DNA from: an uncultured virus (IMG/VR IMGVR_UViG_3300006754_000008)
Taxonomy: Duplodnaviria > Heunggongvirae > Uroviricota > Caudoviricetes
Length of the DNA: 54,881 bases
Virus record (IMG/VR): IMGVR_UViG_3300006754_000008
Direction: 5' to 3' (one strand)
The notes under the pieces were generated by a model. The model ran no database searches, was not told the origin of the DNA, and worked only from the letters and a program-made list of their open reading frames with translations. Below are positions 8,764-45,207 of this stretch, one piece after another (position 1 is the first letter of the stretch; each line of letters opens with the position of its first letter). Both the position numbers and the translations under genes were made by a program.

Positions 8764-9969
8764 ATGCATGAAACTAAAGGTTTGACAAATTCGGATGCGT
8801 CATTTAGAAATGGATATCCTCTTAAAAAGAAAAATGTTAAACAGATCATAAATCGAGTAACAAGTATAACTAGAGAAGTCTTAACAATATATTCTTTGGT
8901 AAAAACAAAAAATCCACTGTCTATAGGGTTAGGAGTCATATCTTCTGTTGGACTCATCTATGATAATTTAGGAATGAAAGAGGGTGTTGGGGCTTCTATG
9001 TTAAAAGAACGAGGATATAAGAATTTTCATGATATAGATGCAGATCTTATCTACTACACTATCAAACATATAGGGCTAGAAGAAGAATTCATTATCAAGG
9101 ATGAGGATGATGATTCCCGCAAAATTAGTAGATTTCTTATTAAAGATGTTGAAATTTTATTTTATCATTGTGATGGTGGAATTTACGGTCCTTTTGTGAA
9201 AGACAAGAAGGAATTTTCGCAAGCATTTTCGGGACTTGTGTTTGATAAGCTTGGTGGAATGATAAAAATAGAAGTTAAGATGGGCAATGAAAGAGAAGCG
9301 GTAAAATTTTCTCCACTTGATATTAGTACAAATATATATATCAGCACCATTGACGAATCAGAATTAATACGCAAATTACAAATGTTTAGAGATATGGGTT
9401 TCACAAGATCATTGCTTTTTCATGGTCCTCCGGGTGTAGGAAAGACAACTTTAGTTGGGAGAATGGTCGAGAAAATGGGAGGTAAATTAATCATTTTACA
9501 TCCTGACACTATTGATTGTATTGAAATGTCTCTATTATCACTTCTTAATTTATTAAATCCTGACATTATTTTATTTGATGATATAGATAGAATTCATGAA
9601 TTTAATGATATTCTTGCTTACTTGGAAGAATTAAATAGATTTAATAAGACTAACCGATTAATTATTGGAACCGTAAATGATCTATATGCTATGCCAGCGC
9701 CGATGAGAAGACCTGGCAGATTTGATCAAATTATAAAATTTGGTCCCCCTAATAAAGCTCAGATATTGGAAATTGTAAATGCCTATTCAGAAAAATTTAA
9801 TGTTAGTTTTTCTAAAGATGGAATAGGAGAAATTGTTGATGCCTGTAATCATTTGACTCCAGCATTTATACAAGAAATAGTAAAACGTAAGTTAGTTTAT
9901 TCTGAAGATGAACTCTTAGAACAGATAAAATATATGAAAGAACTCTTAAGACCAGGTGGAGAAGAATGA
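8764..9969 (+). CDS. AAA+ ATPase
   Basis: Walker A GPPGVGKT, Walker B LFDDID, SRH RRPGRFD. Confidence 0.9.
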   Translation: MHETKGLTNSDASFRNGYPLKKKNVKQIINRVTSITREVLTIYSLVKTKNPLSIGLGVISSVGLIYDNLGMKEGVGASMLKERGYKNFHDIDADLIYYTIKHIGLEEEFIIKDEDDDSRKISRFLIKDVEILFYHCDGGIYGPFVKDKKEFSQAFSGLVFDKLGGMIKIEVKMGNEREAVKFSPLDISTNIYISTIDESELIRKLQMFRDMGFTRSLLFHGPPGVGKTTLVGRMVEKMGGKLIILHPDTIDCIEMSLLSLLNLLNPDIILFDDIDRIHEFNDILAYLEELNRFNKTNRLIIGTVNDLYAMPAPMRRPGRFDQIIKFGPPNKAQILEIVNAYSEKFNVSFSKDGIGEIVDACNHLTPAFIQEIVKRKLVYSEDELLEQIKYMKELLRPGGEE

Positions 9970-12251
9970 AAAATAAACTTCCAGTGATAGTATTATATGA
10001 TAGAGATATCGGTGTTTTTCCGAGAATCGTTTATAATATAGAATTTAATAGACCAGATTCTATATCTATTGTTCATAAGATCTTACAACTTGGCGGGAAA
10101 GCAATTATAGTTGCTCAAAAAACAAGTACCTCAGATGTAAGCGACACTAAAAAGTTACATAGATTTGGCACAGAAATTGTTATTAAAAAATCAATAGATG
10201 CACCACATAATTCTTCTGTCATTATAACAGCAATGGGAATTAATAGAGTTGCTATTAGTCGTTATCTTAAAAATAAAGACAACGAAATTAATTTTGCAAC
10301 CTACACTATTGTTAATGATGATTTTAAGAATGTAAATCAAGACACATTCGAAGCAGTTTCTAATATTAAAGATTTATTAGACTATTATGATTTAACTCGA
10401 TTAATGACAGAAGAGGATCTTCCAACTTCAGAAAGAGAATTAATAGAATTTATTGATAAGCTGGCTATAGATTTGCCGCTAACAACTATGGAGAGAATTA
10501 ATGTAATTAAAGAGTCGGATGTAAATATAAGGGCTGGCATTGTTGTTCAAAATGGTTTTGAGTTAATTAGTAGGGTTGAAGAAGAACTGGAAAACTACGA
10601 TGAAATGGCGCAAGATGTTGATGAATATGAAGAAGAATATGAAGATGTTCAGGATCAATTGGCATTAGAGGACATTGCTAGGATAGAAAAAGAATACAAA
10701 GAAAAAGATATGCCTGACGACATTATAGAAGAGTTTCAAAAAGAACTATATCGAATGCGTCAAATGCAATCAGGTTCAACGGAAATTTCAATTAGTCAAA
10801 CATGGCTAGATACTCTATTATCTCTCCCTTGGGTGGAGAAAACAGAAGAAAACCTCAATCTTAAAAAATCTAAAAAAATCCTCAACGAGGATCATTATGG
10901 TTTAGCAGAAGTTAAAGATAGATTATTAGAATACATTGCCGTCAGAAATCATGCAACAGAAGCAGCAAATCCAATTTTATGTTTTGCTGGGTCGCCGGGA
11001 GTAGGAAAAACCATTTTTGGTCAAAGTGTTGCAAGAGCATTGGGGAGAAAATTCATTCGAATATCATTGGGAGGTGTCTCAGACGAATCAGAAATTAGAG
11101 GACATAGAAGAACTTATATTGGAGCAATGCCTGGCAAAATCATACAAAATCTTACAAGAGTTAAAGTTAGAAATCCAGTATTTATATTAGATGAGCTAGA
11201 TAAAATGCTGGAACATTATAGGGGAGATCCTTCCTCTGCACTATTAGAAGTGTTAGATCCAGAACAAAACGAAAATTTTGTGGATCATTATGTTGGGCTT
11301 CCTTTTAGTTTAAAAGATGTTTTATTTATTGCCACCGTAAATGACTTAAGTAAATTGCATCCTGCTCTAAAAGATAGAATGGAAATTATTGAGTTACCAG
11401 ACTATTCTATTTATGACAAACTACACATTGCTAAAAAACATTTAATTCCGAAACAATTAAAATTACATAATTTAAATAAGAAAAATATTAAATTCACCAA
11501 TAACGCAATTAGAACAATCATCGATAAATATACTTCTGAGCCAGGAGTAAGAAACTTAGAAAGAAGATGTGCTGCGATCCTTAGAAAATTTATAGCAAAT
11601 AATTCAAATCAAATTGATTCTGAATTTACTATAGATTCTAATTATATAAAGACATCTTTGGGCGTTCCTAAGATTGTGCCAGAAGAGAAATTAGATAATC
11701 CCGAAATAGGTGTTACTACTGGTTTGGCTTGGAGCAGCTATGGTGGTGGTTCACTTATGTTTATCGAATCATTATTAACAAATGAAGCTAATGGGAAGTT
11801 AACACTTACGGGAAATTTGGGAAAAGTATTACAAGAGTCAGTTAATATAATTCATTCTTGGATCAAATCTAATAAGAGAACATTACAAATAGATAAAGAT
11901 ATTATTAAACAGAATATACACGTTCACTTGCCAGACGGATCTACTCCAAAAGATGGGCCATCGGCTGGAATAGCAATCGCTGTATCAATAATATCTTCTA
12001 TGCGTAAAGTGCCCGTAAGAAATGATATTGCAATGACTGGAGAGGTGACATTAAGAGGAAGAGTTAAAGAAATTGGTAAAGTAAGAGAGAAGATATTAGC
12101 AGCACATAGAGCGGGAATTTTTAATGTAATAATTCCCAAAGAAAATGAAAAGGACTTGGAAGAACTTCCTGAAGAAGTGAAGAAAGAGGTAACAATATTT
12201 CCAGTAACAGAACTCGGAGATGCGCTAAAACTTGTATTTAAGGAGGAATAA
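9966..12251 (+). CDS. lon: ATP-dependent Lon protease (LonA type)
   Basis: N-domain, GSPGVGKT, GHRRTYIGAMPG, DELDK, PKDGPSAG (catalytic Ser), EKILAA (catalytic Lys). Confidence 0.97.
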   Translation: MKNKLPVIVLYDRDIGVFPRIVYNIEFNRPDSISIVHKILQLGGKAIIVAQKTSTSDVSDTKKLHRFGTEIVIKKSIDAPHNSSVIITAMGINRVAISRYLKNKDNEINFATYTIVNDDFKNVNQDTFEAVSNIKDLLDYYDLTRLMTEEDLPTSERELIEFIDKLAIDLPLTTMERINVIKESDVNIRAGIVVQNGFELISRVEEELENYDEMAQDVDEYEEEYEDVQDQLALEDIARIEKEYKEKDMPDDIIEEFQKELYRMRQMQSGSTEISISQTWLDTLLSLPWVEKTEENLNLKKSKKILNEDHYGLAEVKDRLLEYIAVRNHATEAANPILCFAGSPGVGKTIFGQSVARALGRKFIRISLGGVSDESEIRGHRRTYIGAMPGKIIQNLTRVKVRNPVFILDELDKMLEHYRGDPSSALLEVLDPEQNENFVDHYVGLPFSLKDVLFIATVNDLSKLHPALKDRMEIIELPDYSIYDKLHIAKKHLIPKQLKLHNLNKKNIKFTNNAIRTIIDKYTSEPGVRNLERRCAAILRKFIANNSNQIDSEFTIDSNYIKTSLGVPKIVPEEKLDNPEIGVTTGLAWSSYGGGSLMFIESLLTNEANGKLTLTGNLGKVLQESVNIIHSWIKSNKRTLQIDKDIIKQNIHVHLPDGSTPKDGPSAGIAIAVSIISSMRKVPVRNDIAMTGEVTLRGRVKEIGKVREKILAAHRAGIFNVIIPKENEKDLEELPEEVKKEVTIFPVTELGDALKLVFKEE

Positions 12252-12458
12252 ATGTTTGTATGTGATTTTTGTGGATTAACATCAAAATCTGGTGAAACCA
12301 GTTACTCTATTGTAACTAGAAGGAGGAAGGTCTTATATGGACTGTATGATAAGAATCAAAATGAATTAGGCAAGAAATTAGGATGGGAGATTATTAAAGA
12401 GTCAAAGGCATGTACACAATGTAATATTGCTTTTTTACAGAGTAACAAGGGAGAATAA
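12252..12458 (+). CDS. Small zinc-ribbon protein
   Basis: CDFC...CTQC; AGGAGG RBS. Confidence 0.65.
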   Translation: MFVCDFCGLTSKSGETSYSIVTRRRKVLYGLYDKNQNELGKKLGWEIIKESKACTQCNIAFLQSNKGE

Positions 12459-12461
12459 AAA

Positions 12462-12803
12462 ATGAATCGTCAAAATAATGTTGTAAAGTCAGACTATACT
12501 TATCTAGTTTTCGCATATCGTGATAACTCTGAATTTGATCAGGAATATCAACTAATGCGTTGTAAGGTTCTTGAGGCACATCGTGATCATTTAGTTGTTG
12601 AAAGTCTTAAGAGATATAATCAGAAGTATGCTGGTGCGGAAATGGCCATACGAGGTAGGTATGTGGGTATGCCAGTACGAAGAATTAATAAAGATCAGTG
12701 TTATGCAATTGTAGATGAAACTACATCTGTTGAAGTTCCTTGGGAAACTGTAAGGCGTCGTGAGGGCGCTACTACTCCAGGTCGCTCTCGTGGCGGCAGA
12801 TAG
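12462..12803 (+). CDS. Hypothetical beta-rich protein with basic RGG tail, directly upstream of the Ubl genes
   Basis: GGAG RBS; ends GRSRGGR. Confidence 0.75.
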   Translation: MNRQNNVVKSDYTYLVFAYRDNSEFDQEYQLMRCKVLEAHRDHLVVESLKRYNQKYAGAEMAIRGRYVGMPVRRINKDQCYAIVDETTSVEVPWETVRRREGATTPGRSRGGR

Positions 12804-12824
12804 AAACAATAAAGGAGAACTAAA

Positions 12825-12986
12825 ATGAAGTATTTTTTTGGGTCATTAGAAATCGAGAATAGTGAACTTACATCAGCAGAGGTTAAGAAGGTTTGGGCCT
12901 CTGTGCATCCTGAGATTGAAAATGCTGTTGCTGAAGAGCGTGAAGATGGCATTCACTTTGTACAGAGAAGTGGTACTAAGGGTTAG
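12825..12986 (+). CDS. Prokaryotic ubiquitin-like protein, copy 1 (PRTRC protein C / Prok_Ub-like), 53 aa
   Basis: Absent from ORF track. AAGGAG RBS; MKYFFGSLEIENSELTSAEVKKVWASVHPEIENAVAEEREDGIHFVQRSGTKG; xPEL/I and C-terminal GTKG as in PRTRC protein C. Confidence 0.9.
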   Translation: MKYFFGSLEIENSELTSAEVKKVWASVHPEIENAVAEEREDGIHFVQRSGTKG

Positions 12987-13000
12987 TCAAGCCCAAATGA

Positions 13001-13025
13001 GCTTGTCTCTATAGTAGAGACAAGC
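13001..13025 (+). terminator. Stem-loop after Ubl copy 1 (terminator or RNA-stability element)
   Basis: GCTTGTCTCTA-TAG-TAGAGACAAGC, 11-bp perfect stem. Confidence 0.6.
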
Positions 13026-13061
13026 CTATTAATCTTTTACGGCAGTAATAGGAGAACTAGA

Positions 13062-13223
13062 ATGAAGTATTTTTTTGGATCACTAGAAATCGAGAATAGC
13101 GAGCTTACATCAGCAGAGGTTAAGAAGGTTTGGGCTTCTGTTCATCCTGAGATCGAGAATGCTGTTGCTGAAGAGCGTGAAGACGGTATTCACTTTGTGC
13201 AGAGAAGTGGAACCAAGGGCTAA
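13062..13223 (+). CDS. Prokaryotic ubiquitin-like protein, copy 2 (identical protein to copy 1)
   Basis: AGGAG RBS; same 53-aa sequence ending GTKG-TAA. Confidence 0.9.
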   Translation: MKYFFGSLEIENSELTSAEVKKVWASVHPEIENAVAEEREDGIHFVQRSGTKG

Positions 13224-13236
13224 AAATTCCTAAATA

Positions 13237-13269
13237 TATCCTCCCCTCATGTCCACGGAGGGGAGGATA
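13237..13269 (+). terminator. Stem-loop after Ubl copy 2
   Basis: TATCCTCCCCTC-9 nt-GAGGGGAGGATA, 12-bp perfect stem, no U-tract. Confidence 0.55.
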
Positions 13270-13281
13270 AAGGATTATATT

Positions 13282-13530
13282 ATGAATGTAAGAACTATTT
13301 ATAAATCGGTTCCTAGGAAAAAGAAAGAAGAAAATAATTTATTAAAGGAAGTCTTAGATATTGTAAAAATTACAGATCCTAGAAAAATTCCAGAAAGTCT
13401 TACATCAGTAAGTTTGGGAGAGATAGGAGATTATGTGATGAATAATAATATAAATTTTCAGGATTTTCAAAATTTTATGATAAGAGTGTCAAGAGTACCC
13501 TGCCTAATGGGAAATAATGAGTATATATAA
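13282..13530 (+). CDS. Hypothetical protein in the Ubl cluster
   Basis: ATG 13282 with AAGGA RBS preferred over 13249, which lies in the hairpin loop. Confidence 0.6.
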   Translation: MNVRTIYKSVPRKKKEENNLLKEVLDIVKITDPRKIPESLTSVSLGEIGDYVMNNNINFQDFQNFMIRVSRVPCLMGNNEYI

Positions 13531-14099
13531 TGATAAGAAATATTATTTTAAGTCACATTAGATTCTTAGAAATATTCAAATGGTTTAACAATCAAGGAAT
13601 TTTAACTACCAAACATAAAACGCCAATCCAATATTCAACAATAAATAAGGCCAATAATGCTTTTAAGAGAGTTATGAGAAAAGGAATAAAATTATTGTTA
13701 GAAAAATATGGATTGAAGTGTAATTTCCAAGGAAATTATGTAAACATTACAATTTCTACTAGCCAATTTGATCAATGGTTTGAGCAATTTAATAATATAG
13801 ACTTACTAAGAATGACTCTTAGATATCATTTTACAAACAGTGCATATAGTGGGCACAAACCTTATTATAGGAATCTAAATTTTGCCTCAATAAATATCCC
13901 TTCATCTATACACACTTATAAAGGAACATATTTAACAAACTATTTAGATGATATTTTAAAAGATTTAGAGCAAATTGCGAAGATAATAAACCCGGAGAAA
14001 AAACCTTTAAAAAAAGCTGTACGAAAAACAAAGACAGAAGTTAAAACCACAAGTAATGAACAAGAATTATTTGATGCTAGTTTGGCACGAAGGCTATAA
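13530..14099 (+). CDS. Hypothetical protein in the Ubl cluster (C-terminal EQELF motif)
   Basis: TAATG coupling with the upstream ORF. Confidence 0.65.
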   Translation: MIRNIILSHIRFLEIFKWFNNQGILTTKHKTPIQYSTINKANNAFKRVMRKGIKLLLEKYGLKCNFQGNYVNITISTSQFDQWFEQFNNIDLLRMTLRYHFTNSAYSGHKPYYRNLNFASINIPSSIHTYKGTYLTNYLDDILKDLEQIAKIINPEKKPLKKAVRKTKTEVKTTSNEQELFDASLARRL

Positions 14100-14100
14100 T

Positions 14101-14745
14101 ATGAATGGCGACAAATTAAAAATAGAAATAACTGAGGGCGAAGAACTTAGTTATCTGGAAATGACACGAGCTGATGGTAAAAAAGAATATAAGACTATTT
14201 CTTTTTTTGATTTCATAGAGGCTGTCAGAAATGAAGCTCCAGTTACTACTGGACTATTGCCTCCAGGAACTAGAATCTTTGGCGGCAGCGAATCAAACTT
14301 TTCAATTATCATAGAACAACCTCCGATGAAGTATGTGATTGTCACAAATTATCAGGAACTTAAAAAAATAACCGTTCCTTTGCCAGCTACATTATTTGGC
14401 GCAAAGGTAGTCAATTCTAAACTTAGTATTGTCAGAATAGTTAGTTTTATTGGCCCGTTATTAAATGAGAGTAAACCGCTTTATTATTTTCCATATGGCA
14501 ATTGTAATCCAGAAGTCTGTTGGGGTTCTGCCAGAATTTCAAACATAACTGGCCCAAAAGGCATATATTCTCTTATAGCAAAGTTTATGGATTCACATTT
14601 TAATGGTGATCTTTGGTATATAAATGGATATAATTCTTTCTATAATTTTATAAACGATATGTCGCAGAAAGATGAATTTCCAGAAAAACATCTGGCGCAA
14701 TTAAATTGTACTTTCTCGGGTTTTAAAAACAATCTATTTCTTTAA
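14101..14745 (+). CDS. Prokaryotic E2-like protein (PRTRC protein B / Prok-E2_D-like)
   Basis: LPPG, VPLP..LF, LYYFPYGN...VCWG (candidate catalytic Cys), F..S.FN.DL; alternative start 14056. Confidence 0.8.
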   Translation: MNGDKLKIEITEGEELSYLEMTRADGKKEYKTISFFDFIEAVRNEAPVTTGLLPPGTRIFGGSESNFSIIIEQPPMKYVIVTNYQELKKITVPLPATLFGAKVVNSKLSIVRIVSFIGPLLNESKPLYYFPYGNCNPEVCWGSARISNITGPKGIYSLIAKFMDSHFNGDLWYINGYNSFYNFINDMSQKDEFPEKHLAQLNCTFSGFKNNLFL

Positions 14746-14754
14746 GGAGCTAAA

Positions 14755-15747
14755 ATGGAAAACGAAATAAGTGATGCTCAAATCAATTTTGAGAAAATGT
14801 TAACGGATCATTTTATAGGAGAAATTCCAGATCAATTCACTAAGCCAATATCCTATGTAGTACAACGTGATGGGATTTGGGAAGTAAGAAAAACAGAAAT
14901 TGGATTATTTGTAAGACAATTAGTTGAACAGGACATTAGTGGATTGCCCAATCTTATTGATGAAAGTATTGAAGAATCTTTTGTTCCAAAGGTTCCTATT
15001 AATATCTTAGGTGAAGCTGTATCATTTTTTAGGCACATATATAATAAGATGAAGGCTGAATCATTTGTACAAGTAATTTATAATCCTACAATAAAAGAAT
15101 ACTATATTTTTTGTCCTCCACAAAAAGTTTGTGCTACTGGCGTTGATTGGGAAATTCCAGATGGAGAAAAAGAGCCAGAAGGAATCAAAGTATTAGAATT
15201 ACATAGTCATTGTGACATGGATTCATTTTTCTCAGGTATTGATGATGCCGATGAAAAAGCGGATAGATATTATGGGGTTATTGGAAAGCTGGATAATTTT
15301 ATGCCAGAAATTTCATTTAGGTTGGTTCTCGGCGGTGATGAATATGAGGTAGAAGTAGAAGACATTTTTGATTTAGATGGGGACGTTTATCATTCGGAAT
15401 TTCCTCAGGAGTGGGCTGAGAAAGTTACTAAGGCACCCGTAAAAATTATTTCTTCAAACAATAAGAATTTTGGAAAAACCTATGTTGCGAAATCTCCAGC
15501 AAGTCTTCCAGATGATCTTAAAGAATATGATTTTAATGATGATAATTTTGAGGATGAAGAGGCATTGGAATTAACCGATGAGCAAATGGATCTATATGCA
15601 GACTACTTAAAAAATTATCGTGATTATGATCGTCATACGGATGACGAGAATCCTTTAACCGGCTTACCTCGCAAAGATGGTAATTCTTATTTGATGGGTG
15701 ACCACATGAGCATGGGAAGAAGATATGACGACATTACCAAATTTTAG
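14755..15747 (+). CDS. JAB/MPN metallopeptidase (PRTRC protein A-like) with acidic tail
   Basis: Upstream E (KAES), P.Q.V, HSHCDMDSFFSGIDDADE JAMM motif, YGVIGKLD. Confidence 0.9.
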   Translation: MENEISDAQINFEKMLTDHFIGEIPDQFTKPISYVVQRDGIWEVRKTEIGLFVRQLVEQDISGLPNLIDESIEESFVPKVPINILGEAVSFFRHIYNKMKAESFVQVIYNPTIKEYYIFCPPQKVCATGVDWEIPDGEKEPEGIKVLELHSHCDMDSFFSGIDDADEKADRYYGVIGKLDNFMPEISFRLVLGGDEYEVEVEDIFDLDGDVYHSEFPQEWAEKVTKAPVKIISSNNKNFGKTYVAKSPASLPDDLKEYDFNDDNFEDEEALELTDEQMDLYADYLKNYRDYDRHTDDENPLTGLPRKDGNSYLMGDHMSMGRRYDDITKF

Positions 15748-16564
15748 TTTTTTCAAATACAATAAAAGATTAAGCAGAATTATTGTATTGGGATGTGGCG
15801 GAACAGGAAGTCACGCTGTACCCAATGTCATCAGATTACTTTTAGGAATCCCCAAAAGGCTCTTGCCAGAAATTTATTTAATAGATGGTGATACTGTTGA
15901 GCATAAGAATATTCTTAGACAAAATTTCATACATATAGATCTTGGGCAAAATAAAGCAGAAGTATTAGCCAGAAGATATTCTACGGCTTTTGGAATTCCC
16001 GTTTCAGCAGTACCAGAATTCTCCGATAATAAAAATAATATTCTTGGTCAACTCATAAGGGGAAAGAATGATATTTGTATTATTGGTTGTGTAGATTCTC
16101 ATAATGGTAGAAGACACATAAGAAGTACCATTAGACGATTCAAGAAAAAAGATATTATCTGGATTGACTCAGGAAATGAAGAAAAAGCTGGGCAGGTAGT
16201 TATGGGATATAGAGTACAAAATCCTGAAGATGTTATTGATTTATCAGAGATACCTTATAATAAAACTGGATTATTTAGCTTACCCTTTGTTACAGATGTT
16301 TATCCAGAAATTTCAAAGTCAAAGGACAAAGCTAGGAGTGAGCTTAGTTGTGATGTATTAATTAATGTAGAGCCACAAGCAATGATGGTCAATGTTACAG
16401 CAGCCAATTTAATATTAAATTATTATAATGCTTTGCTTTATAAAACACCATTAAATAATTTTGGAGTAACATTTAGTATTACCAATGGATTCTCTAGTAT
16501 GATAAACAATATAGAGAATTTATCAGTAATACCAAATCAAGAATTAAAAGATTATGAAAAATAG
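15725..16564 (+). CDS. ThiF/E1-like adenylyltransferase (PRTRC ThiF-like)
   Basis: GCGGTGS, DGDTVEHKNILRQNF, NKAEVLARRY, GCVD, WIDSGN, SC catalytic-Cys region. Confidence 0.92.
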   Translation: MTTLPNFSFFKYNKRLSRIIVLGCGGTGSHAVPNVIRLLLGIPKRLLPEIYLIDGDTVEHKNILRQNFIHIDLGQNKAEVLARRYSTAFGIPVSAVPEFSDNKNNILGQLIRGKNDICIIGCVDSHNGRRHIRSTIRRFKKKDIIWIDSGNEEKAGQVVMGYRVQNPEDVIDLSEIPYNKTGLFSLPFVTDVYPEISKSKDKARSELSCDVLINVEPQAMMVNVTAANLILNYYNALLYKTPLNNFGVTFSITNGFSSMINNIENLSVIPNQELKDYEK

Positions 16565-17777
16565 GATATCTATAGAAAACCTTTTAAATAGTTTTAGTTT
16601 CATAAATAGTAATGATATAGTATCATATGAATTTTCTATTAGGAAAATACCAAATGATTGGAATTTTACAATCATGATGGGTATTTATGACATAATTAAT
16701 AAAATCATAGATTTTAGGATTGATGACACATTTATAGATGAGTTATATGACAGCATCAGCTATAAATATAATTTTTCTGATAAGTTTTTAAGATTCTTAG
16801 AGGATTTTCAATTTACTGGTGATCTACAATGTATTCCCGAAGGAGAGATTATATTTCCAGGTGAACCCATTATGATATTAACCGGGAAAGTTTCAGAGAT
16901 AGAGATTATTAAAAATATTATTATTGAAGAATTATCAAAAAATATTGGAACAATAACACATTGTGTTAGATGTTTACTAGCATCCAATGAAGTATCACTT
17001 ATTAGTACATCTTATGATCCACTAGCATCTAAACTATCTTATATTGCTGGTTTTAAAGCGATAACTGATTTATCTTCTAGTATAAAATTCAATATTCCGT
17101 TAGCTAATAATATCAATAATGTATCTTATATATTAAATAGTAAAGAGGAAATATGTAATGATACTAGAATTTTAGATTTTAATGATATTTCTAGGACATT
17201 AAAGAATATTGAATTAAATAGAAGTTGTGTTGTAAAGGTTCACAATAAAAATTTAGATATAAACTTACAAAGGATAAAAAAATCTGGCTTAGGTGTTAAG
17301 TCTCTTTTGGTAACTTGTTCTGATGATACAACTAAAATCTATAAGGTTTCTCAGATATCTCATTTATACCCTACAAGTATTCTTATTAATCCACAATTAA
17401 AAAATGTTAATGTTGAATCATATCCTGTATACAATCATACACAAAATAAGTATCTCATGGTTCCTACAAGCGGAATAAGTACTCTTCCCGGAGTAAAGCA
17501 AGTTTATATTGACAAAAGAAAAAAATGGCATCATCTTATATCAATAGACAGTTTGATTCAAGAAGGTCTTGACCCGCTGATTGAAACTTTTGTCAAACGA
17601 GGAAAACCAACACAAAGAGAAATTGATATTGAAGCAAAAAGGGCAGTATGCAATGGAAGTTTAATTTCCATTCCTAGTGAATTTTTAAATTTAAATAGCA
17701 TAATAAGCCAACCACTTAAAATTCATAGAAGCATATTAGACAAATATTATAAAGCATATGGAGATTTACATGAATAA
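16554..17777 (+). CDS. Degenerate nicotinate phosphoribosyltransferase-like protein
   Basis: FQFTGDL.CIPEGEIIFPGEP and LPGVKQVY are NAPRTase-like; active-site motifs not recognisable. Confidence 0.65.
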   Translation: MKNRISIENLLNSFSFINSNDIVSYEFSIRKIPNDWNFTIMMGIYDIINKIIDFRIDDTFIDELYDSISYKYNFSDKFLRFLEDFQFTGDLQCIPEGEIIFPGEPIMILTGKVSEIEIIKNIIIEELSKNIGTITHCVRCLLASNEVSLISTSYDPLASKLSYIAGFKAITDLSSSIKFNIPLANNINNVSYILNSKEEICNDTRILDFNDISRTLKNIELNRSCVVKVHNKNLDINLQRIKKSGLGVKSLLVTCSDDTTKIYKVSQISHLYPTSILINPQLKNVNVESYPVYNHTQNKYLMVPTSGISTLPGVKQVYIDKRKKWHHLISIDSLIQEGLDPLIETFVKRGKPTQREIDIEAKRAVCNGSLISIPSEFLNLNSIISQPLKIHRSILDKYYKAYGDLHE

Positions 17778-25902: not shown

Positions 25903-26123
25903 TTAGTCAATCACACCCGCATCTTCTTCCATCTTTTTAAGGCGAGTATAATAATCATCAATTTCTTCTAAATGATCCATAGATATCTCCGTCGCAATAC
26001 CAACATCTTCTGTATGTTCTAGTTCGACATTAACACCCATGGCTAACTCATGTGGGTCAAAGTTTTTGTATGATTTATTATCAGCCTTCCCACCTTTTAA
26101 TTGCTCAACATTAATGTTTTTAC
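25903..26123 (-). CDS. DUF5661-like domain; probable frameshifted C-terminus of the 2013-aa protein
   Basis: Frame without its own start: LKGGKAD...FDPHELAMGVNVELEHTED...ATEISMDHLEEIDDYYTRLKKMEE; joins upstream ORF by -1 shift in an A10 run. Confidence 0.7.
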
Positions 26124-29100
26124 TTTTTTTTTTAATCCAGAATATTTTAGAATTTGATTAAAGCGCACACAAGCATCTCTTCCCTTAAATCGATCATGCG
26201 GCTTTGGCATTGGTTCACCTTCAGGTTTAAATTTAACAGTATCAAAATCTAATTTTTCCCACATATAATCTAATTCCGATTCTCCTAGGGCAGTTTTCAT
26301 ATGTCTACACATATTATCAGGATATTTTACATCAATTTCAAAATCAGAAATATCTCTGCCACAATAAGTACATTTTGATAAGCGACCATCATTATTTGTA
26401 TCACAAGTACACTTCTTAACTAGTTTAGTTTTTCCTTGCCAGCAAAGATAGCGTGGTCTTTTTACGGAGTTGGCTTCGCCAATTCTTGGGCCAAAAGGAC
26501 TCTTGCATGTTTGACAGTTTTTTGGAGGCTTGTCATCATCCCACTTAGTCCATTGAAAACAATTATCACATTTAATCATTGGTATGTTGGGAATAATAGC
26601 ACTTTTGCCAAGTTTTGAATCAAGATCTTCTTCACAGATCTCACATATTTTAGGAGGATTTTTGCTATCCCATTCGATCCATTGTTTGCAACTATTGCAT
26701 CGAACCATTGGAATATTGGGAGAATAAACCGAACCCTTTCTTGAATGAAGATCTGTCTTACATCTTGCACATTCTGTTAGTTTATCATGCCAACGAATCC
26801 ATTGTCTACAGTTATCACATTTAATCATTGGAGTATCAGGGACAGTGCTAGGAGCCTTCTTTAATTGATAATTTTCTTTATATACGGCTCCTGTTAGAGG
26901 TATACCACACTTCTCACATTTCTCTTTAGAGAAGAAGCTTAACCCGTCACAGTCAGGCCTGGGACATTTCTTTTTCTTGGGCCTTATTCCATCATTATTT
27001 ATAATATCACTAAAATCAGCGCCACAACTTGAACATTCTTCCGGATATTTTGTCTCTTTACTACCATTAGTTCTTTCTTTACATTTGGGACAAATAACAT
27101 ATATGTCAGGATTTATATCAGCTTTGTGATATTCATAACAAGTAGCTTTTTCAATAGATCCTGACGGTCCAGTAATAAATGAAGTAACAAATATACCACG
27201 AGTTATGACTGCACTGCCATTAGGGTGTTTCTGCGTCCTAGCTCTATACTTTACTAGTTCGCCCAATCTTCTTGCTTCTTTAATAGCTTCAACATCAAGA
27301 ACGTGTTTACAATATGGATTACCTCTTCCCTTAATTTTCTCTTCACTTTCTTGATATTCTTCACAAGGTTTTCCTTCAATGGCCGTACATTTTTCATACT
27401 GTATTTTCTTTGTAGAAAAAACATTTTTTTCAATTGTTTGTTTTATTTCTTTAGTAATATCTTTTTCACAATGTTGACAAACATCAGAATTTAAATCATT
27501 CATTGTTCCACAATCAGAACATTTTTTATTTTCTGTCAATTCACCGCATTGCTGACACTCTTTTGCTCCAGTTGCATATTCTTCACCACAATTTTCGCAC
27601 TCTATATTAAACTCGGGCTTCTTTGGCATCGGCTCATAGTCTTCTCTTAATTTTGCAGGATAAAGTGTTTCCCCCGCGATATTGGTTCTTTCTCTCTCAT
27701 CTGGATCTTCTTCTGCCCTAACTTGATGAAGGCTAGTTGATTTTATATCCCCAGTGAAAGGGTCTTTGCTTGAACATTCTGGCCCTTTACACATTGTCTC
27801 ATTAGCATCATTTTTAAAATGACAAGAGGGGCATCTTTTTATTATTCTAGGAACCGAACAATCTTTGTTAGTACAAAAACTAGAAGTGCCAGGACTTTCA
27901 GTATTACATCGAGGACAAATTTTAATTGTCCCTCTTGTATATCCTGCGATATCAGATCTGTAATCTTTTCTGTCAATAATAAATTTCCTCTCTCTCTCTT
28001 TCTCTTCTTCTCTCGCTCTTTCCTCTTCTCTCGCCCTATCTCTCTCTCTTTTTTCCCTAGCTTCGTCAGATGTCCCAGAAGGATCCTTCTTGCTTTTCTC
28101 TGTTTCTTTCACAACCTCTTTAACGATTTCTTTAACTTCTGGAGCAACTGTCACAGCAGAATCTTCTTTTTCTCCGCGCAATATAGATTGAAGAGCATCT
28201 GATGGAGAATTTTTTTCTTGAGTAAGTCTCTCTATTTCAGATTCTAAAGTTTCCCACTTATCTCTATTAATTTCAATAATAAGTGTCGTTGCCCTATCAA
28301 GCTGTTGAGCATCCAAGTCTGCTATGGGCTGGCCAAATAAAGCACGAGAATGAGCATCAAGCATCATTTCTTGAATTTTTTGTAATTTTTTTACAGTAAC
28401 AGTACACCACTTTTTATATTTTTTAACTTTCTTTTTCCAGCTTTTTTTCTTGGCTTTATCTGCTTTTTCTCCCACAGACTTTTCTCTCTTTTTTAAATAC
28501 TTCTCTTCTTCCATTTTTTCTGGAGACATTTCCCAAGGACTTTTCTCTCTTTCGGGATTAACAGGAGCACTAAAAAATCCGGGCTCTGGCCTTCTGCCGC
28601 GCAATTTTTTCTCCCTCTTTTCCATTTCTTCTTTATAATGCTGCTCTGCGTCTTCGAAATAGTTAGGATCATCATCTTCTTCAGGCTCAGGTTCATCTCT
28701 TAGAATAGTTTTAACGGCATTCTTAATTAGACCGAATCTATCTTGGCCAAACCACGCCTCTTTATCTTTTTTTCTTTTAAAGCTTATTGGTGCTTGGTTT
28801 TCTCGCATTCTCTTCTCCGTTAATTTAAGGGATTTTTGAAGTTTCGTGATCTCTTTTAAATCTCGCTCCCTATCAGCTTTTAAGAACGCTATGTCTTCTT
28901 TAAGTTGTGATAGATAATTTCTTATAAGACCAAATACAGAGATACCATCTTCATTTTTCATTCTTAATCTAGCATTTCTAACAATCAAATTACCTTCGCT
29001 ATCTGTAATATTAGTTCCGTCACCAAATTGTTTTCTTATAAGTTGACGAATTTTATATTGTTCTTTAGGATTTATCAAGTCAAATGTTTTATTAAATGCT

Positions 29101-32100
29101 TCTAGAGCATATTCATTTTGAAGATCTTTGACTCTTTCTTCGACTTTTATTAAAACGCGACCAATTTGAGGCCAAACACTAATTGGTTCACCCTTTCCCT
29201 TTTTTCTAGGAACTTGAGGAGGAAGATCACCAGCAAAATTCCAAGGTTCATTTGGAAGCATTAATTCCTCTCTGGCTTCATGAATTTGACCTTTTCTGGC
29301 CAATGTAACTACATGTTTGATAAATTGATATATACCACGTTTTTTTGCTTTTTCATCCATTTCTGGAGGCCCCAACCTAGTATTGTTCTCTACTTGGCGA
29401 GCGTCCGAAAGATCTTTTTGGCAAACATCATTTTCACAGATATTAGAGTTTGCCTTACTATAATGGCCACATTTACGACAAATTTTTTCTACAGTAAAAC
29501 ATTTAGTACATCTCTCACTATGAACAGGGTATGGGTCATTTTGGTCATTACATTTTGGACAGTATTTGGCATAAACTTTTTTGTTAGCATATAACATACT
29601 TTTTACAAGAGGAAGCTCTGCTACCCAATCAGGAAAATCTAATTTAAATCTATCTAATAAATGTTGTTTTTGTGCTAGCTCACTGCCATTATAACCAACT
29701 CTTCCCAATAATTGAACATGCTCTCTGAAGTCTTGATCATATTGCCTTTGTTCTTTTTCATCAACATTGCGAGATAATTTTCCGAAATAATCATGTACTT
29801 CATGGGATTTCCATAAAGCCATTGTTAGTCCAACATCAAGAAGCATAATTGGTTTAATACCAGTTTCTATTTTGGCTTCTTTTAAGCTATTTCCACAACT
29901 ACTACAAGTGAGCCTATTTGGATTAATATTTTTAGTTTCACACGCTTCACTAGTTGGATCATCTGGATTATCCTTATACTGACAAATTTTAATGGGGACA
30001 TTGGATAATTCTGCTATAACATCATTGCTTATTTCTTTGAAAAGCTGGTTGGTGCCAGATTTTTCTTCCGCAAATGTCCATCTTTGTTCCGCAAATTCAG
30101 CATCAGACAGATTGCTGGATGAATTAAAGTAAATGCTTGTTAGCTCAACACCGGACAAAGAAGTATTACATTTGTAACATTCTTTGTGATCTGGAGAGTT
30201 TTCAGCATAACAAATAACATTAGGACAAAGTTTTATATTAATTCTTGGAGGGCCGGGAATAACTCCCTCTTGTTCTTTTTGAACTCCTCCTCTTCCTAGG
30301 CGATCTTTAACTGCTCTATAGTTTGTTACCATATTAACTACTTGAAATGTAGTAAGTAATTCTTCTCCTAATTGTATTTGAAGACGATCTTTTTCACTTT
30401 TCAATATTGCAGGAGAATAGGGAAATCCCCCCTTGCCAATTCCGGTAGCACTATGAGCCCTTACCGTATTACGCTTTCCTACTCTAAAATGTTCTTCAGG
30501 TCTTTTTTTCCAAATTTCAATTAACTTGATATCTTCAGACGAGAATCCGCTTGTATCACCAGCGTTAAACTCATCTGCTCTAGACATATAATTATTAAAA
30601 AGAGTTTCTTGTGATACGCTAGCATATTCTTCTAAAGATTCTAAGAATTTCTCAAATTCATATTCTGAAATAACATCAAAGTCTAAACTTAGAGGAAGAT
30701 TTTCAAGCAACTTGCGAGCAATTGTTTCATTATCTAGCCGTTGTCTCTGTCTTACTGATAAATTGCCGAATATTTCGGGAGGCGTTGGTACTCCACCAGA
30801 AAATTTTTCAAAAATATTAGTTAGTAATTGTGTTAACTTATCAAAATCAGCACCCTCATCAATTTCATTAATGACGTATCTTGGCGTCATAAGTTTCCTA
30901 TTAAATTTATCAACGCATCTTTCACAATATTCTTCCTTAATACTCATTCTATTATTACATCCTGGTTGGGGGCATATTTTTACAAGCTCTATAGCTGCAT
31001 AAATAGGTTTCTTATTAAACTTGTTATAAAATTCCCTATCTCCATCTCGGAATTCATTCCACATTGCTGTCTCAGCACTATTTAAACTATTTGTCCAATA
31101 TACTTCCTCGGCAGGAGTAGTACCCAAATTTTGAGATTTTGAGGATTCCATAGAAGGATTTCTTTGAGCAACTTGTGCATCATATTCTTCTTGTTTTTGT
31201 TTTGTTAATAAGTCTAGATCTTCTCTTTGTACAGGCATTCTTCTTTTATCAGATTTACTAACTTCATTATCAATAATTTCTAAAACTTTTTCAAAAGCAG
31301 CATCTTTTTCTTTAGTAATTTCTGCTTGTTCTTTCTTATCCTTAACATTTTTTTTATTTATGACAGTTAATAAAGACTTTAAGTCTTGCTTGCGGTTGCT
31401 GGGAAGAATAGAGATTTCACTTGAGGAATAAAATTTTATTAATTTTATTCTTAAATTATCAAAAACATGTAGGCATAGGCCACATTTTTTTCCGTCTACT
31501 GGCTTAGCTGATTTTTCCTTATATTCTTCTATATGTGCTACTGAAATAACTTCTCCACATACTTCACATACTATTGGCTCGGTAGTTATTTCCTTACGAG
31601 ACATTTTAGTCAAACATTCTGGATTGGGGCAAGTAACGGTAGGCTTCATCTCGGTATCCTCTGGAACCTTACATCTTGGACATTCCCAAAATTTTGGAAC
31701 AGTATTGTCTTTTTGTTCTTGTCGCATAACTTCTTCATCTATGGCATTAGAACTTCTTGCAGCATAAGCCTCTGCTCTTTTATGCCAATTAGATAAATCA
31801 CCCTCAATTGTCCCTATTTCTTTCTCTCTTTTAAGTTCGGCTTCTTCTTCTTCAGTTATTTCCTGGGTAGTGAATTTTGGTTCTGGATAATCTAAGATTT
31901 CTCCTTCTGGCTCCTCTTCCTCCTCTTCCTCCTTTTCGCCCTCTTCTTCCTCTTCTGGCTGTAAGCCGGCTTCTTCTCGCCGCTTTGCCTCTTCAGCTTT
32001 TTCCAGCTCTCTTAACTCTCTCTGTTTGGCTTCCTCTTCTTCTCTTTGTTCAAGATAAGATTCTTCATCCCCCATTCCTGATGGACCTTTCTTTGGCCTA

Positions 32101-32138
32101 ACCGCTTCTTTTAAAATATTCTCAAATCTAGTAGACAT
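26097..32138 (-). CDS. Giant multi-zinc-ribbon protein (double zinc ribbon repeats, charged linkers)
   Basis: 2013-aa ORF, dozens of CxxC pairs, AGGAG RBS. Confidence 0.9.
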   Translation of the reverse strand: MSTRFENILKEAVRPKKGPSGMGDEESYLEQREEEEAKQRELRELEKAEEAKRREEAGLQPEEEEEGEKEEEEEEEPEGEILDYPEPKFTTQEITEEEEAELKREKEIGTIEGDLSNWHKRAEAYAARSSNAIDEEVMRQEQKDNTVPKFWECPRCKVPEDTEMKPTVTCPNPECLTKMSRKEITTEPIVCEVCGEVISVAHIEEYKEKSAKPVDGKKCGLCLHVFDNLRIKLIKFYSSSEISILPSNRKQDLKSLLTVINKKNVKDKKEQAEITKEKDAAFEKVLEIIDNEVSKSDKRRMPVQREDLDLLTKQKQEEYDAQVAQRNPSMESSKSQNLGTTPAEEVYWTNSLNSAETAMWNEFRDGDREFYNKFNKKPIYAAIELVKICPQPGCNNRMSIKEEYCERCVDKFNRKLMTPRYVINEIDEGADFDKLTQLLTNIFEKFSGGVPTPPEIFGNLSVRQRQRLDNETIARKLLENLPLSLDFDVISEYEFEKFLESLEEYASVSQETLFNNYMSRADEFNAGDTSGFSSEDIKLIEIWKKRPEEHFRVGKRNTVRAHSATGIGKGGFPYSPAILKSEKDRLQIQLGEELLTTFQVVNMVTNYRAVKDRLGRGGVQKEQEGVIPGPPRINIKLCPNVICYAENSPDHKECYKCNTSLSGVELTSIYFNSSSNLSDAEFAEQRWTFAEEKSGTNQLFKEISNDVIAELSNVPIKICQYKDNPDDPTSEACETKNINPNRLTCSSCGNSLKEAKIETGIKPIMLLDVGLTMALWKSHEVHDYFGKLSRNVDEKEQRQYDQDFREHVQLLGRVGYNGSELAQKQHLLDRFKLDFPDWVAELPLVKSMLYANKKVYAKYCPKCNDQNDPYPVHSERCTKCFTVEKICRKCGHYSKANSNICENDVCQKDLSDARQVENNTRLGPPEMDEKAKKRGIYQFIKHVVTLARKGQIHEAREELMLPNEPWNFAGDLPPQVPRKKGKGEPISVWPQIGRVLIKVEERVKDLQNEYALEAFNKTFDLINPKEQYKIRQLIRKQFGDGTNITDSEGNLIVRNARLRMKNEDGISVFGLIRNYLSQLKEDIAFLKADRERDLKEITKLQKSLKLTEKRMRENQAPISFKRKKDKEAWFGQDRFGLIKNAVKTILRDEPEPEEDDDPNYFEDAEQHYKEEMEKREKKLRGRRPEPGFFSAPVNPEREKSPWEMSPEKMEEEKYLKKREKSVGEKADKAKKKSWKKKVKKYKKWCTVTVKKLQKIQEMMLDAHSRALFGQPIADLDAQQLDRATTLIIEINRDKWETLESEIERLTQEKNSPSDALQSILRGEKEDSAVTVAPEVKEIVKEVVKETEKSKKDPSGTSDEAREKRERDRAREEERAREEEKERERKFIIDRKDYRSDIAGYTRGTIKICPRCNTESPGTSSFCTNKDCSVPRIIKRCPSCHFKNDANETMCKGPECSSKDPFTGDIKSTSLHQVRAEEDPDERERTNIAGETLYPAKLREDYEPMPKKPEFNIECENCGEEYATGAKECQQCGELTENKKCSDCGTMNDLNSDVCQHCEKDITKEIKQTIEKNVFSTKKIQYEKCTAIEGKPCEEYQESEEKIKGRGNPYCKHVLDVEAIKEARRLGELVKYRARTQKHPNGSAVITRGIFVTSFITGPSGSIEKATCYEYHKADINPDIYVICPKCKERTNGSKETKYPEECSSCGADFSDIINNDGIRPKKKKCPRPDCDGLSFFSKEKCEKCGIPLTGAVYKENYQLKKAPSTVPDTPMIKCDNCRQWIRWHDKLTECARCKTDLHSRKGSVYSPNIPMVRCNSCKQWIEWDSKNPPKICEICEEDLDSKLGKSAIIPNIPMIKCDNCFQWTKWDDDKPPKNCQTCKSPFGPRIGEANSVKRPRYLCWQGKTKLVKKCTCDTNNDGRLSKCTYCGRDISDFEIDVKYPDNMCRHMKTALGESELDYMWEKLDFDTVKFKPEGEPMPKPHDRFKGRDACVRFNQILKYSGLKKKVKTLMLSN

Positions 32139-42822: not shown

Positions 42823-43341
42823 ATGGGCGTAAGATTAAAAAAAAGACCTAAGTCAGTAAGATATATTAGTCAAAGAAATCGATATAGTTGTGGACCTATA
42901 GCTATTTTAAATATAATGAAATGGGCAGGATATGATGTCACTTATAAATATTTAGGCACTTTAAAAAAATATTGTGGCACAACTCGCCAAGGAACAAAAG
43001 AATCTGGTTTAGTAAGTGGATTAAATAAGTTTCAGTTACTTGTTACAAAATATTATAGTAGAGTGACAGCTAAAGTTTTAGAATCTTATATTAATTCTGG
43101 CTATGTAGCGATTCTTTTAATATCAAAATGGAATAATGACAATATTCCAGAAAGACATTATCTTTCAATTGTTGGCAAGCAAGTCAAATATACAAATATT
43201 TTTTATAAAGTAATTAATTATGGTCCCGAAGGAACTGTCGTTTGGGTTAGTCGAAAAAAATTGATTCGGCTATTTAACAGATCTTTAAAAGGACAGCGAC
43301 ATCCAAAAGCTTGGTTTATTCGACGGAGAGATAGACAATGA
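42823..43341 (+). CDS. C39-like cysteine peptidase, paralog 1
   Basis: Q....SCGP, GT, HY, VIN. Confidence 0.8.
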   Translation: MGVRLKKRPKSVRYISQRNRYSCGPIAILNIMKWAGYDVTYKYLGTLKKYCGTTRQGTKESGLVSGLNKFQLLVTKYYSRVTAKVLESYINSGYVAILLISKWNNDNIPERHYLSIVGKQVKYTNIFYKVINYGPEGTVVWVSRKKLIRLFNRSLKGQRHPKAWFIRRRDRQ

Positions 43342-44670: not shown

Positions 44671-45207
44671 ATGGGACTCAAGTTAAAAAAAAATCTAAAT
44701 AATATTCGTTATGTAGGACAACGAGATAGTTTTTCTTGTGGTCCACTTTCAATATTAAATATTTTAAAATGGGCAGGATATGATATTACATCTAAATATT
44801 TACCCATATTAAAAAAACATTGCAAGACTGATATGGGCGGAACTAATACTGAAATAATTTCCAAAGTCTTAAGCAAATATTCTCAAATTAAGTTTGAATG
44901 TATTCCCTTTATTAAAATACAAGATTTACACAATCATATAAAGAATGACGGTAGCGCAATTATAGAAGTATCTTGGTTTGATGAGAAAAAACAAACAATA
45001 GAAGGTCATTTTTATAATATTATTGATATATTATCATATAATGATGTCACTCTTTATAAAACTATTAATTGGGGCAAAAGCTGCACTGAAAAATATGTTG
45101 ATAGAAAAAAGATTGTAACAGAATTTCGCAAATGTGCTAGATCTCAGGATAATCCCAAAGCATGGCTCATAAGGAGGAAGATTGGGCAGTTACTGGAGAA
45201 GGGCTAA
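44671..45207 (+). CDS. C39-like cysteine peptidase, paralog 2
   Basis: QRDSFSCGP..ILNILKWAGYD, GH, TIN; clear paralog of 42823. Confidence 0.8.
   Translation: MGLKLKKNLNNIRYVGQRDSFSCGPLSILNILKWAGYDITSKYLPILKKHCKTDMGGTNTEIISKVLSKYSQIKFECIPFIKIQDLHNHIKNDGSAIIEVSWFDEKKQTIEGHFYNIIDILSYNDVTLYKTINWGKSCTEKYVDRKKIVTEFRKCARSQDNPKAWLIRRKIGQLLEKG

Follow-up and report, generated by a model that had tools for sequence, protein, structure and literature searches.

Why should a virus carry two adjacent genes for one and the same small ubiquitin-like protein (Ubl), and what would it do with the product? We address this question for a 54,881-nt stretch of DNA from an uncultured virus (the window, in what follows), which has a GC content of 32% and genes strongly biased to one strand. 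Alongside many unknown ORFs, it encodes S21, an IF-3-like protein, peptide deformylase, EF-Tu, Lon, a ClpP-like protease, and five tRNAs. Lone translation genes accompanied by Lon and ClpP-like proteases and tRNAs are presumably typical of huge phages, and from this gene content the source is probably a giant marine phage; no capsid or terminase gene was found among the 41 window ORFs scanned. Two other features of the window lie away from the Ubl locus: a 2013-aa ORF at 26097-32138, the sole long minus-strand gene, with no PHROG match and a weak NCBIfam match, and a 172-aa and a 178-aa ORF (42823-43341 and 44671-45207), similar and with alike N-termini, that form an apparent paralog pair.

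One protein encoded by two silent-variant genes

Both Ubl genes, like the sites, tracts, hairpins, and cassette genes located below, lie on the plus strand. Copy 1 (12825..12986) encodes a 53-aa protein that resembles the compact beta-grasp of Prok_Ub and PRTRC protein C and ends in G-T-K-G before a TAG stop; copy 2 (13062..13223), the last copy, encodes the same protein and stops at TAA. The 75-nt spacer between them (12987..13061) is free of stops, in frame, and not conserved as such in relatives; the repeat period of 237 nt is also in frame. The duplicated unit itself runs from the Shine-Dalgarno (SD) site to shortly beyond the stop, 186 nt with 89% identity between copies. A first-pass annotation of this DNA had listed 14 synonymous and no amino-acid differences, and its list is exact codon by codon: the 15 differing nucleotides fall in G6, L8, S13, E14, A25, V27, I31, E32, D41, G42, V46, G50, T51, and G53, all silent, and in the stop (TAG/TAA). 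The pairwise comparison that it proposed as a check gives, over 33.8 synonymous and 122.2 non-synonymous sites, a pS of 0.41, a dS of about 0.6, and a dN of 0, and the neutral chance of all 14 changes being silent is about 5e-10. Judged from these substitution counts, the genes are under purifying selection, as had been claimed. We regard the identity of the two proteins and their silent divergence as established, as we do the cassette content and conserved residues described below.

Each copy has its own SD-like site 7 nt upstream of the ATG, AAGGAG at 12812..12817 for copy 1 and AGGAG at 13050..13054 for copy 2. These had been called strong ribosome-binding sites, but folding predicts partial occlusion, with unpaired probabilities of 0.3-0.5 for copy 1 and 0.04-0.75 for copy 2, which leaves the word "strong" unsupported. 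A promoter scan near the Ubl genes gave nothing better than 9-of-12 matches. The GC3 of copy 2 is 0.37 (19/51), the highest among 91 ORFs (median 0.19), and that of the Ubl in a related metagenome locus, L002, is also raised (24/51 against a median near 0.19); because the GC3 of the window's EF-Tu is not raised, this quantity is unusable as a measure of expression.

The protein is a distant member of its family. Against PF14454 (Prok_Ub) it scores 14.5 bits (E 0.031; cut-off 25) and against TIGR03738 (PRTRC protein C) 15.7 bits (E 0.012; cut-off 45.95), both below threshold, and BLASTP gave no alignment between it and the plasmid PRTRC protein C. A profile search among 1.84 billion representatives returned 38 proteins, of which 8 of the 14 scanned pass the PF14454 cut-off, and a profile built from the Ubl repeats of relatives recovers the plasmid PRTRC protein C with an E of 2.6e-9 among 8 test proteins. 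Gly53 is invariant across 22 aligned sequences. The predicted structure (pLDDT 89) runs from a first hairpin through a helix and another hairpin to a free tail, and its structural matches are nearly all beta-grasp proteins at Z 3.3-4.9, the top match (Z 4.9, rmsd 2.6, 50 aligned) having the low Z of a small protein; Foldseek returned no match at E <= 0.001. As modelled, then, the Ubl is a compact beta-grasp with a free C-terminal glycine. A complex prediction for the Ubl with the cassette's E1 scored 0.18 against a mark of 0.32.

Among the 38 family representatives, 26 have two to seven fused units, 10 a single terminal motif, and 2 no such motif; 6 are free-Gly monomers, counted as proteins alone. 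One database protein (P0018) joins a single Ubl-like domain to a linker rich in proline and a terminal part that contains cysteine, and a 393-aa protein at L004:7299-8480 (P0026) has three Ubl-like repeats without the terminal motif behind a predicted N-terminal membrane segment.

Tandem copies in relatives and in natural populations

Searches of metagenomes found four loci, of which three (L001-L003) are true homologues; L004 was left out of the tandem count, since its Ubl-like repeats lie within the 393-aa protein and lack the terminal motif. All three homologues carry a tandem pair, a count of Ubl copies in related genomes having been proposed as a check in the first-pass annotation. Searches of viral contigs with the Ubl, E2, and E1 and of genome contigs gave no relatives. 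Six loci from a DNA pattern scan were rejected as chance matches at unrelated terminase-like genes, and a second scan gave none.

Locus L001 is nearly the same strain as the window, assembled separately, and its pair is identical. The Ubl of L002 is 91% identical to that of the window and its two copies differ by one silent base; the pair reads as a fresh re-duplication, because its hairpin-free spacer of 36 nt repeats exactly the 36 nt upstream of copy 1. The Ubl of L003 is 77-81% identical to that of the window, with 10 silent and no replacement differences within the pair over 31 available codons. Its second copy begins with ATA (L003:171-173), as does database protein P0004, which could reflect an unusual start codon, silencing of the copy, or a plain error.

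Ubl proteins thus differ by 0 residues within lineages and by 5-12 between them, while silent divergence within pairs reaches a dS of 0.6-0.84. At the between-lineage dN/dS of about 0.036, some 4.9 replacements would be expected over the window and L003 pairs, and none is seen (p about 0.008, a rough figure). Tandem pairs that are protein-identical in diverged relatives point to concerted evolution. Silent sites give a mixed picture: copy 2 of the window has a dS of 0.47 to L002, less than the 0.6 that separates it from copy 1, and at the 15 sites where the window copies disagree, L002 is matched by copy 2 at 12 and by copy 1 at 1 (p 0.003); yet both window copies carry S17 and Q47 in place of the P and K of L002 and L003. 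Such a patchwork suggests short-tract conversion, although the gene is short and codon bias could produce the same pattern.

The copy number in natural populations can be approached through assembly graphs. We used 4 of 24 listed metagenome runs (X1, X2, X3, and X6), among the best of those containing the stretch; the runs so listed are marine or seawater metagenomes. In all four, a single contig leads out of copy 1, across the spacer, and into copy 2, and the depth of the spacer piece relative to the flanks is 1.89, 1.81, 2.43, and 1.96, where a contig depth is one figure per contig rather than a copy number and no read or contig spans the array. A 52-nt piece shared by the copies has 1.06 (X1) and 1.02 (X2) times the depth of the spacer piece; an array of two copies predicts a ratio of 2, whatever the GC bias, and one of three copies with one popped bubble predicts about 1.08. 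The flow sums of X3 balance within about 10% (45 and 51 against 50, 35 against 32, 21 against 23) and correspond to 3.4-3.8 copies; in X6 one piece has 1.65 times the flank depth where 2.04 was predicted.

The places where contigs end suggest that hybrid copies exist. In a 31-mer graph, the window's sequence could be broken only by the 32-nt identical tract at 12867-12898, and contigs break further at 12847-12876 (X1 and X2), 12963-12992 (X3), and around 12921 and 13183 (X6). Mismatches at contig ends (2, 3, and 4 clipped letters, their identity inferred from counts) fit the diagnostic sites of hybrids with a copy-2 front and a copy-1 back. Crossovers would lie in tracts identical in both copies: 16 nt at 12847..12862 in X1 and X2, which may be one population; the 32-nt tract 12867..12898 (copy 2: 13104-13135), which holds S17, in X3; 26 nt at 12921..12946 in X6; and, for a second hybrid in X3, 11 nt at 12963..12973, which holds Q47. 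These make four crossover points in four runs. Among all but one of the listed rows, no loose contig end of the window's strain type falls inside the array, so that the extra depth appears to loop there. The six flank differences of X3 recur in L001, whose assembly has two pure copies.

An array of about 3 to 3.8 copies fits these graphs, and it is likely that the mean in the sampled populations exceeds two copies. For the window's own strain two copies may still be correct, and the two-copy assembly is probably an under-count of the natural array; that assemblies under-count such Ubl arrays is a warning for the reading of metagenomes. Run X6 also holds a second, L002-like relative (of the L002:8001-8360 type) in which a 199-nt repeat piece has a depth of 121.6 between flanks of 52 and 49, and this relative may itself exceed two Ubl copies.

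The cassette and the hairpins

Downstream of the Ubl genes lie five genes of a cassette. The first, an 82-aa ORF without a family match (13282..13530), has its start placed by the SD AAGGA at 13270-13274 and by relatives, the longest ORF running from 13249. It is followed by a 189-aa ORF (13530..14099) that takes the place of a 339-aa gene in a plasmid cassette and has no usable family match; homology of these two middle genes to their plasmid counterparts was not found. Next come an E2-like gene of the Prok-E2_D or PRTRC B type (14101..14745, start inferred, longest ORF from 14056; PF14460 29.9 bits, cut-off 25), a JAB/JAMM peptidase gene of the PRTRC A type (14755..15747; TIGR03735 E 2.9e-9, below cut-off, with alignment), and a ThiF-like E1 gene of the PRTRC ThiF type (15725..16564; PF00899 E 3.7e-15; TIGR03736 121 bits, cut-off 144.75). 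The order Ubl, small, mid, E2, JAB, ThiF is the same in the window, plasmid pAZI09, and L002.

The residues that such enzymes would use are present. Cys140 of the E2 is conserved in 8 of 8 aligned sequences, and Cys209 of the E1, a 279-aa protein with a single ThiF domain, in 5 of 5; the E1 also has a glycine-rich loop at G23 and RQNF at 65. Alignment identifies E102, H150, H152, S160, and D163 in the JAB protein, and the spacing of H150, H152, and D163 equals that of H91, H93, and D104 in Bub, as given in the available text on that system. Downstream of the E2 cysteine, the plasmid pAZI09 protein reads F-S-H and the window protein F-N-G-D; the His is absent from that column in 6 of 7 non-pAZI09 sequences (Bacillus phage KLEB27-3 has it), and the Asp that follows is present in 7 of 7. 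Taken together, gene order, profile matches, and residues make this probably a phage-type version of the PRTRC-type Ubl conjugation cassette. Among the flanking genes, AAA+ ATPase and Lon protease genes lie upstream (8764..12251), in the same order as in L002, and two upstream ORFs of 113 and 68 aa gave no PRTRC family match, nor did a broader protein search find a usable match for the 113-aa ORF. A NAPRTase-like gene (16554-17777) directly 3' of the E1, in L002 too, aligns with the family profiles over their N-terminal part only.

Two hairpins follow the Ubl genes, and their positions are as first annotated. Hairpin 1 (13001..13025) is a perfect 11-bp stem with an imperfect extension to 12996-13030, and hairpin 2 (13237..13269) is a perfect 12-bp stem with the loop hexamer GTCCAC at 13251-13256, abutting the SD of the next gene. 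They are the two most stable of the window's seven perfect hairpins of at least 10 bp, have z scores of -3.8 and -3.7 with no equally stable structure in 200 shuffles, and rank 3rd and 1st among 91 gene ends. The partial termination attributed to them finds no support: neither hairpin has a canonical U-tract, and a terminator scan of the plus strand from 11900 to 14200 returned no site. Rfam gave three weak matches, all far below the gathering score. That each copy has its own hairpin is true in the window but is not a conserved arrangement, as L002 lacks one between its copies.

Hairpin 2 is the conserved element. In L002 and L003 its loop hexamer and its place beside the following SD are kept while the stem varies, and 6 of 12 pairs have changed on both sides, a count equalled by 8 of 500 shuffles; this covariation comes from three sequences, in which a one-column slide still pairs 81%. 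A strong hairpin stands 3' of the last Ubl gene in all nine phage-type cassettes (the window, L002, L003, and six cultured phages). By eye, a U-tract follows it in the Bacillus phages Edson and WH1, Vibrio phage D69, Acinetobacter phage ME3, and Salmonella phage Arash, and a few U bases follow hairpin 1 of L003. The hairpin of KLEB27-3 was missed in a 45-nt scan (-5.0) and seen in a 110-nt fold (-28.2). Of the plasmids, pAZI09 has no strong hairpin after its Ubl gene and the Bacillus plasmid pAD3 has a weaker, more distant one. As a separate observation, the hairpin 2 loop (13251-13256) could pair over five bases with the Ser49-Gly50 codons just upstream (13207-13211), as is possible for the last copies of the window, L002, and L003 and impossible for window copy 1; this is a post hoc and weak pattern, GGA making up 41% of Gly codons.

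Tag supply, rival readings, and known systems

The explanation that we favor, and hold to be reasonably probable as a whole, is that the Ubl genes form the tag-supply end of a phage-type PRTRC cassette under selection for an excess of tag over enzymes. Going by its sequence, each small gene would yield a ready Ubl with a free C-terminal Gly53 that needs no maturation cut. Conserved residues and known Ubl cascades suggest that the ThiF-like E1 would adenylate the Ubl and carry it on Cys209, that the E2 would accept it on Cys140 and transfer it to a target, and that the JAB peptidase would take it off again. Because such a tag would be consumed stoichiometrically, selection would favor more tag than enzyme. 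Most relatives would supply it from one fused poly-Ubl gene, and the window lineage from a tandem array of separate genes. Unequal recombination within the short identical tracts would produce hybrid copies and about 3-4 copies on average, and every hybrid would encode the same protein because all differences between copies are silent. Re-duplication or conversion would then pass new residues to all copies, in concerted evolution, while purifying selection keeps the protein and lets silent sites drift. Abundant Ubl RNA most likely gives way to scarcer enzyme RNA at the hairpin behind the last copy, a drop that in the window may come about through a block to 3' decay and crowding of the next ribosome site, and in five cultured phages through a terminator-like hairpin with a U-tract. 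Translation of the genes, the E1-E2 relay, an array of more than two copies, conversion, RNA stabilization, and selection on dose are the parts of this account that we infer.

The dosage idea had already been raised for this locus, and it gains from the tandem relatives, the deeper arrays, a family that is mostly multi-copy by fusion, and the hairpin in nine of nine cassettes; since Arash, ME3, and plasmid pAZI09 have one Ubl unit, multiple copies are not essential. From the two gene layouts and the shared hairpin alike, the tag seems to be used in bulk; its target should then be an abundant one, a prediction open to test in cultured phages. A bolder version can be put forward tentatively, in which wild populations expand and homogenize the silent-variant array as a gene-dosage accordion, a second route to the polyubiquitin solution beside the fused poly-Ubl genes. 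In that version the hairpin with the conserved loop would act as a dedicated RNA switch for the tag-to-enzyme ratio, and the bulk target could be the phage's own virion proteins, host proteins destined for the Lon and AAA+ pair, or Ubl-like defense enzymes of the host. Leads to a target include the label "virion structural protein" on the WH1 poly-Ubl, which is annotation only, and the AAA+ and Lon genes upstream in the window and L002; the annotated regions examined around the cassettes of cultured phages show no such genes.

We consider it unlikely that copy number is unselected, with an array drifting by unequal crossing-over, extra copies harmless, and selection removing only poisoned tags. 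Short tandem genes with identical tracts of 26-32 nt do recombine readily, and single-unit relatives exist (6 of the 38 representatives as free-Gly monomers, plus Arash and ME3). However, recombination should also collapse arrays to one copy, yet at least two are present at three of three loci and in four of four runs; copies have persisted to a dS of 0.6-0.84, and most of the family is multi-unit.

A different function for the Ubl, as a sulfur carrier forming a ThiS/MoaD-like thiocarboxylate or as a free bulk protein (a virion component or a decoy for ubiquitin-like host defenses), also seems rather improbable. A ThiF-like E1, a JAB protein, and a Ubl occur together in sulfur-transfer operons too, according to the accessible portion of the 2006 survey (PMC1779556), the fold matches include MoaD and ThiS-like chains, and the poly-Ubl of WH1 is annotated as a virion structural protein. 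Against these functions, no sulfur-donor gene is seen in the cassette, a catalytic carrier would not need to be in excess, every aligned cassette has an E2-family gene with the conserved Cys, and conjugation to virion proteins would likewise place the Ubl in the virion.

It is very unlikely that the TAG of copy 1 is read through into a Ubl-linker-Ubl polyprotein with hairpin 1 as the signal. The in-frame 237-nt spacing and stop-free spacer would permit this, the 132-aa database entry P0006 was predicted with TAG as Gln, and 6 of 10 genes ending in TAG share their frame with the gene that follows, against 9 of 36 others (p 0.057). Code 11, however, gives 92% coding density, with TAG ending 17 of 92 ORFs; copy 1 ends with TAA in both L002 and L003, whose spacers respectively contain stops and are out of frame (73 nt); copy 2 has its own SD; and none of the five tRNAs in the window (a part of the genome) is a suppressor. 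Codes 15 and 4 were rejected for the window, where code 11 is in use. Since the window uses that code and both relatives end copy 1 with TAA, the P0006 fusion is most likely a gene-calling artefact; plus-strand TAG-ended genes of the window that run stop-free in frame into the next gene may explain the TAG-to-Gln call. Finally, although short repeats in metagenomes misassemble easily and no listed piece covers the whole stretch, the joining of two strain haplotypes of one gene, which the first-pass annotation had named as a danger, is ruled out to within a very small residual chance by the single contigs in four of four runs, by the identical pair in the separate assembly L001, and by the own pairs with different spacers in two diverged relatives; any assembly error would tend toward collapse instead.

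The tag-supply reading places the locus among several known systems. PRTRC systems comprise a protein E and ParB-related genes and reside on plasmids or integrative and conjugative elements (ICEs). The window cassette shares with the PRTRC cassette (NCBIfam TIGR03735-03738; Pfam Prok_Ub, Prok-E2_D, Prok-JAB, ThiF) the gene order of plasmid pAZI09, a Ubl ending in G-T-K-G, an E2 with its Cys, and separate JAB and E1 genes. It differs in its probable huge-phage setting, in having the Ubl as tandem separate genes followed by a conserved hairpin, in NCBIfam scores that are all below cut-off, and in that no protein E (which pAZI09 has) or ParB-like gene is seen beside it in the window. PRTRC-type cassettes were themselves predicted in 2006 as operon type 6d (Iyer et al., PMC1779556), an equation made by matching descriptions; relative to type 6d as described there, the downstream His of the window's E2 is replaced. 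The cassette type is thus already known by prediction, and the new elements are the array of separate Ubl genes, the variation and hybrids that it appears to show, and the recognition of the hairpin as a trait of the family. A literature search, largely of open-access papers, turned up no work on PRTRC-type Ubl genes in phages or on how many copies they carry, nothing on phages WH1 or KLEB27-3, and no experimental PRTRC study; the type 6d row of Table 1 in PMC1779556 and the bioRxiv operon tables may name phage members.

Protein conjugation is proven in bacteria for Bil and Bub (10.1101/2023.09.26.559546; PMC11601596), and the window cassette is neither. Bil, in the available text, has the same order of Ubl, E2, JAB, and E1, but its E1 is multidomain (IAD-AAD-CYS) and the system, which resides in defense islands, defends the host, whereas the window's single-domain E1 of 279 aa, in a probable phage, excludes that identity. 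Bub is described in the portions available as having gene fusions, DUF6527, and oxyester chemistry without Cys; the window has unfused genes with Cys209 and Cys140, and no DUF6527 match was found in its cassette ORFs, which excludes Bub as well. PADLOC gave short N-terminal E1-E2 matches only and none for the other five proteins. The multi-domain Ubls of these systems, including the filament-forming ones, which are three-domain proteins (PMC11601603), are not described in the sections available as arrays of identical units.

Closer counterparts are the fused poly-Ubl cassettes of Edson and WH1 (five units each), KLEB27-3 (four), D69 (three), and pAD3 (four units), with a single unit in Arash, ME3, and pAZI09; the Ubls of D69, Arash, and ME3 are weak profile matches. 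The fused cassettes share with the window the Ubl family, the cassette, and near-identical units with silent divergence, and the four phages among them share the hairpin after the Ubl gene. They differ in that one ORF with a C-terminal cap requires cleavage by JAB, whereas each unit of the window has its own SD, stop, and free Gly, and in that the repeats of Edson and WH1 are silent-saturated (pS 0.56-0.92) whereas the window array, at a pS of 0.41, is apparently still recombining. In Edson (L005:818-1717) and WH1 (L008:6995-7894), repeats 2-5 are near-identical in protein and share fewer codons than within-gene shuffles, 122 of 311 against 137.5 in WH1 (p 0.0075) and 130 of 311 in Edson (p 0.086), as if silent sites had been pushed apart against recombination. 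Among the single-unit phages, Arash has a 66-aa Ubl-like ORF ending in G-T-K-G (L015:107-307) that is read in a different frame from the annotated gp251c, apparently a wrong gene call, and ME3 has a Ubl-like ORF without a terminal Gly (L007:840-1031) and a JAB gene split in two, the parts separated by about 2 kb that contains other ORFs (L007:2742-5852).

The parallel with eukaryotic multi-copy ubiquitin genes, drawn in the first-pass annotation, holds as an analogy and is not one of membership. Polyubiquitin repeats are protein-identical paralogs with silent divergence, whose number varies by unequal crossing-over and which evolve in concert, according to the accessible text of a recent account (PMC10457151) and the work that it cites (Nei 2000; Sharp and Li 1987). 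The window copies are likewise protein-identical within a genome and silently divergent, and their repeat number appears to vary. Unlike polyubiquitin, they encode a 53-aa compact beta-grasp of another Ubl family with a single terminal Gly, no proteasome is known, and the units are not fused head to tail into a precursor, each having a stop and its own SD. Within these bounds, the locus may be a small natural case of polyubiquitin-style concerted evolution, a matter of debate for eukaryotes, with apparent hybrids present in populations.
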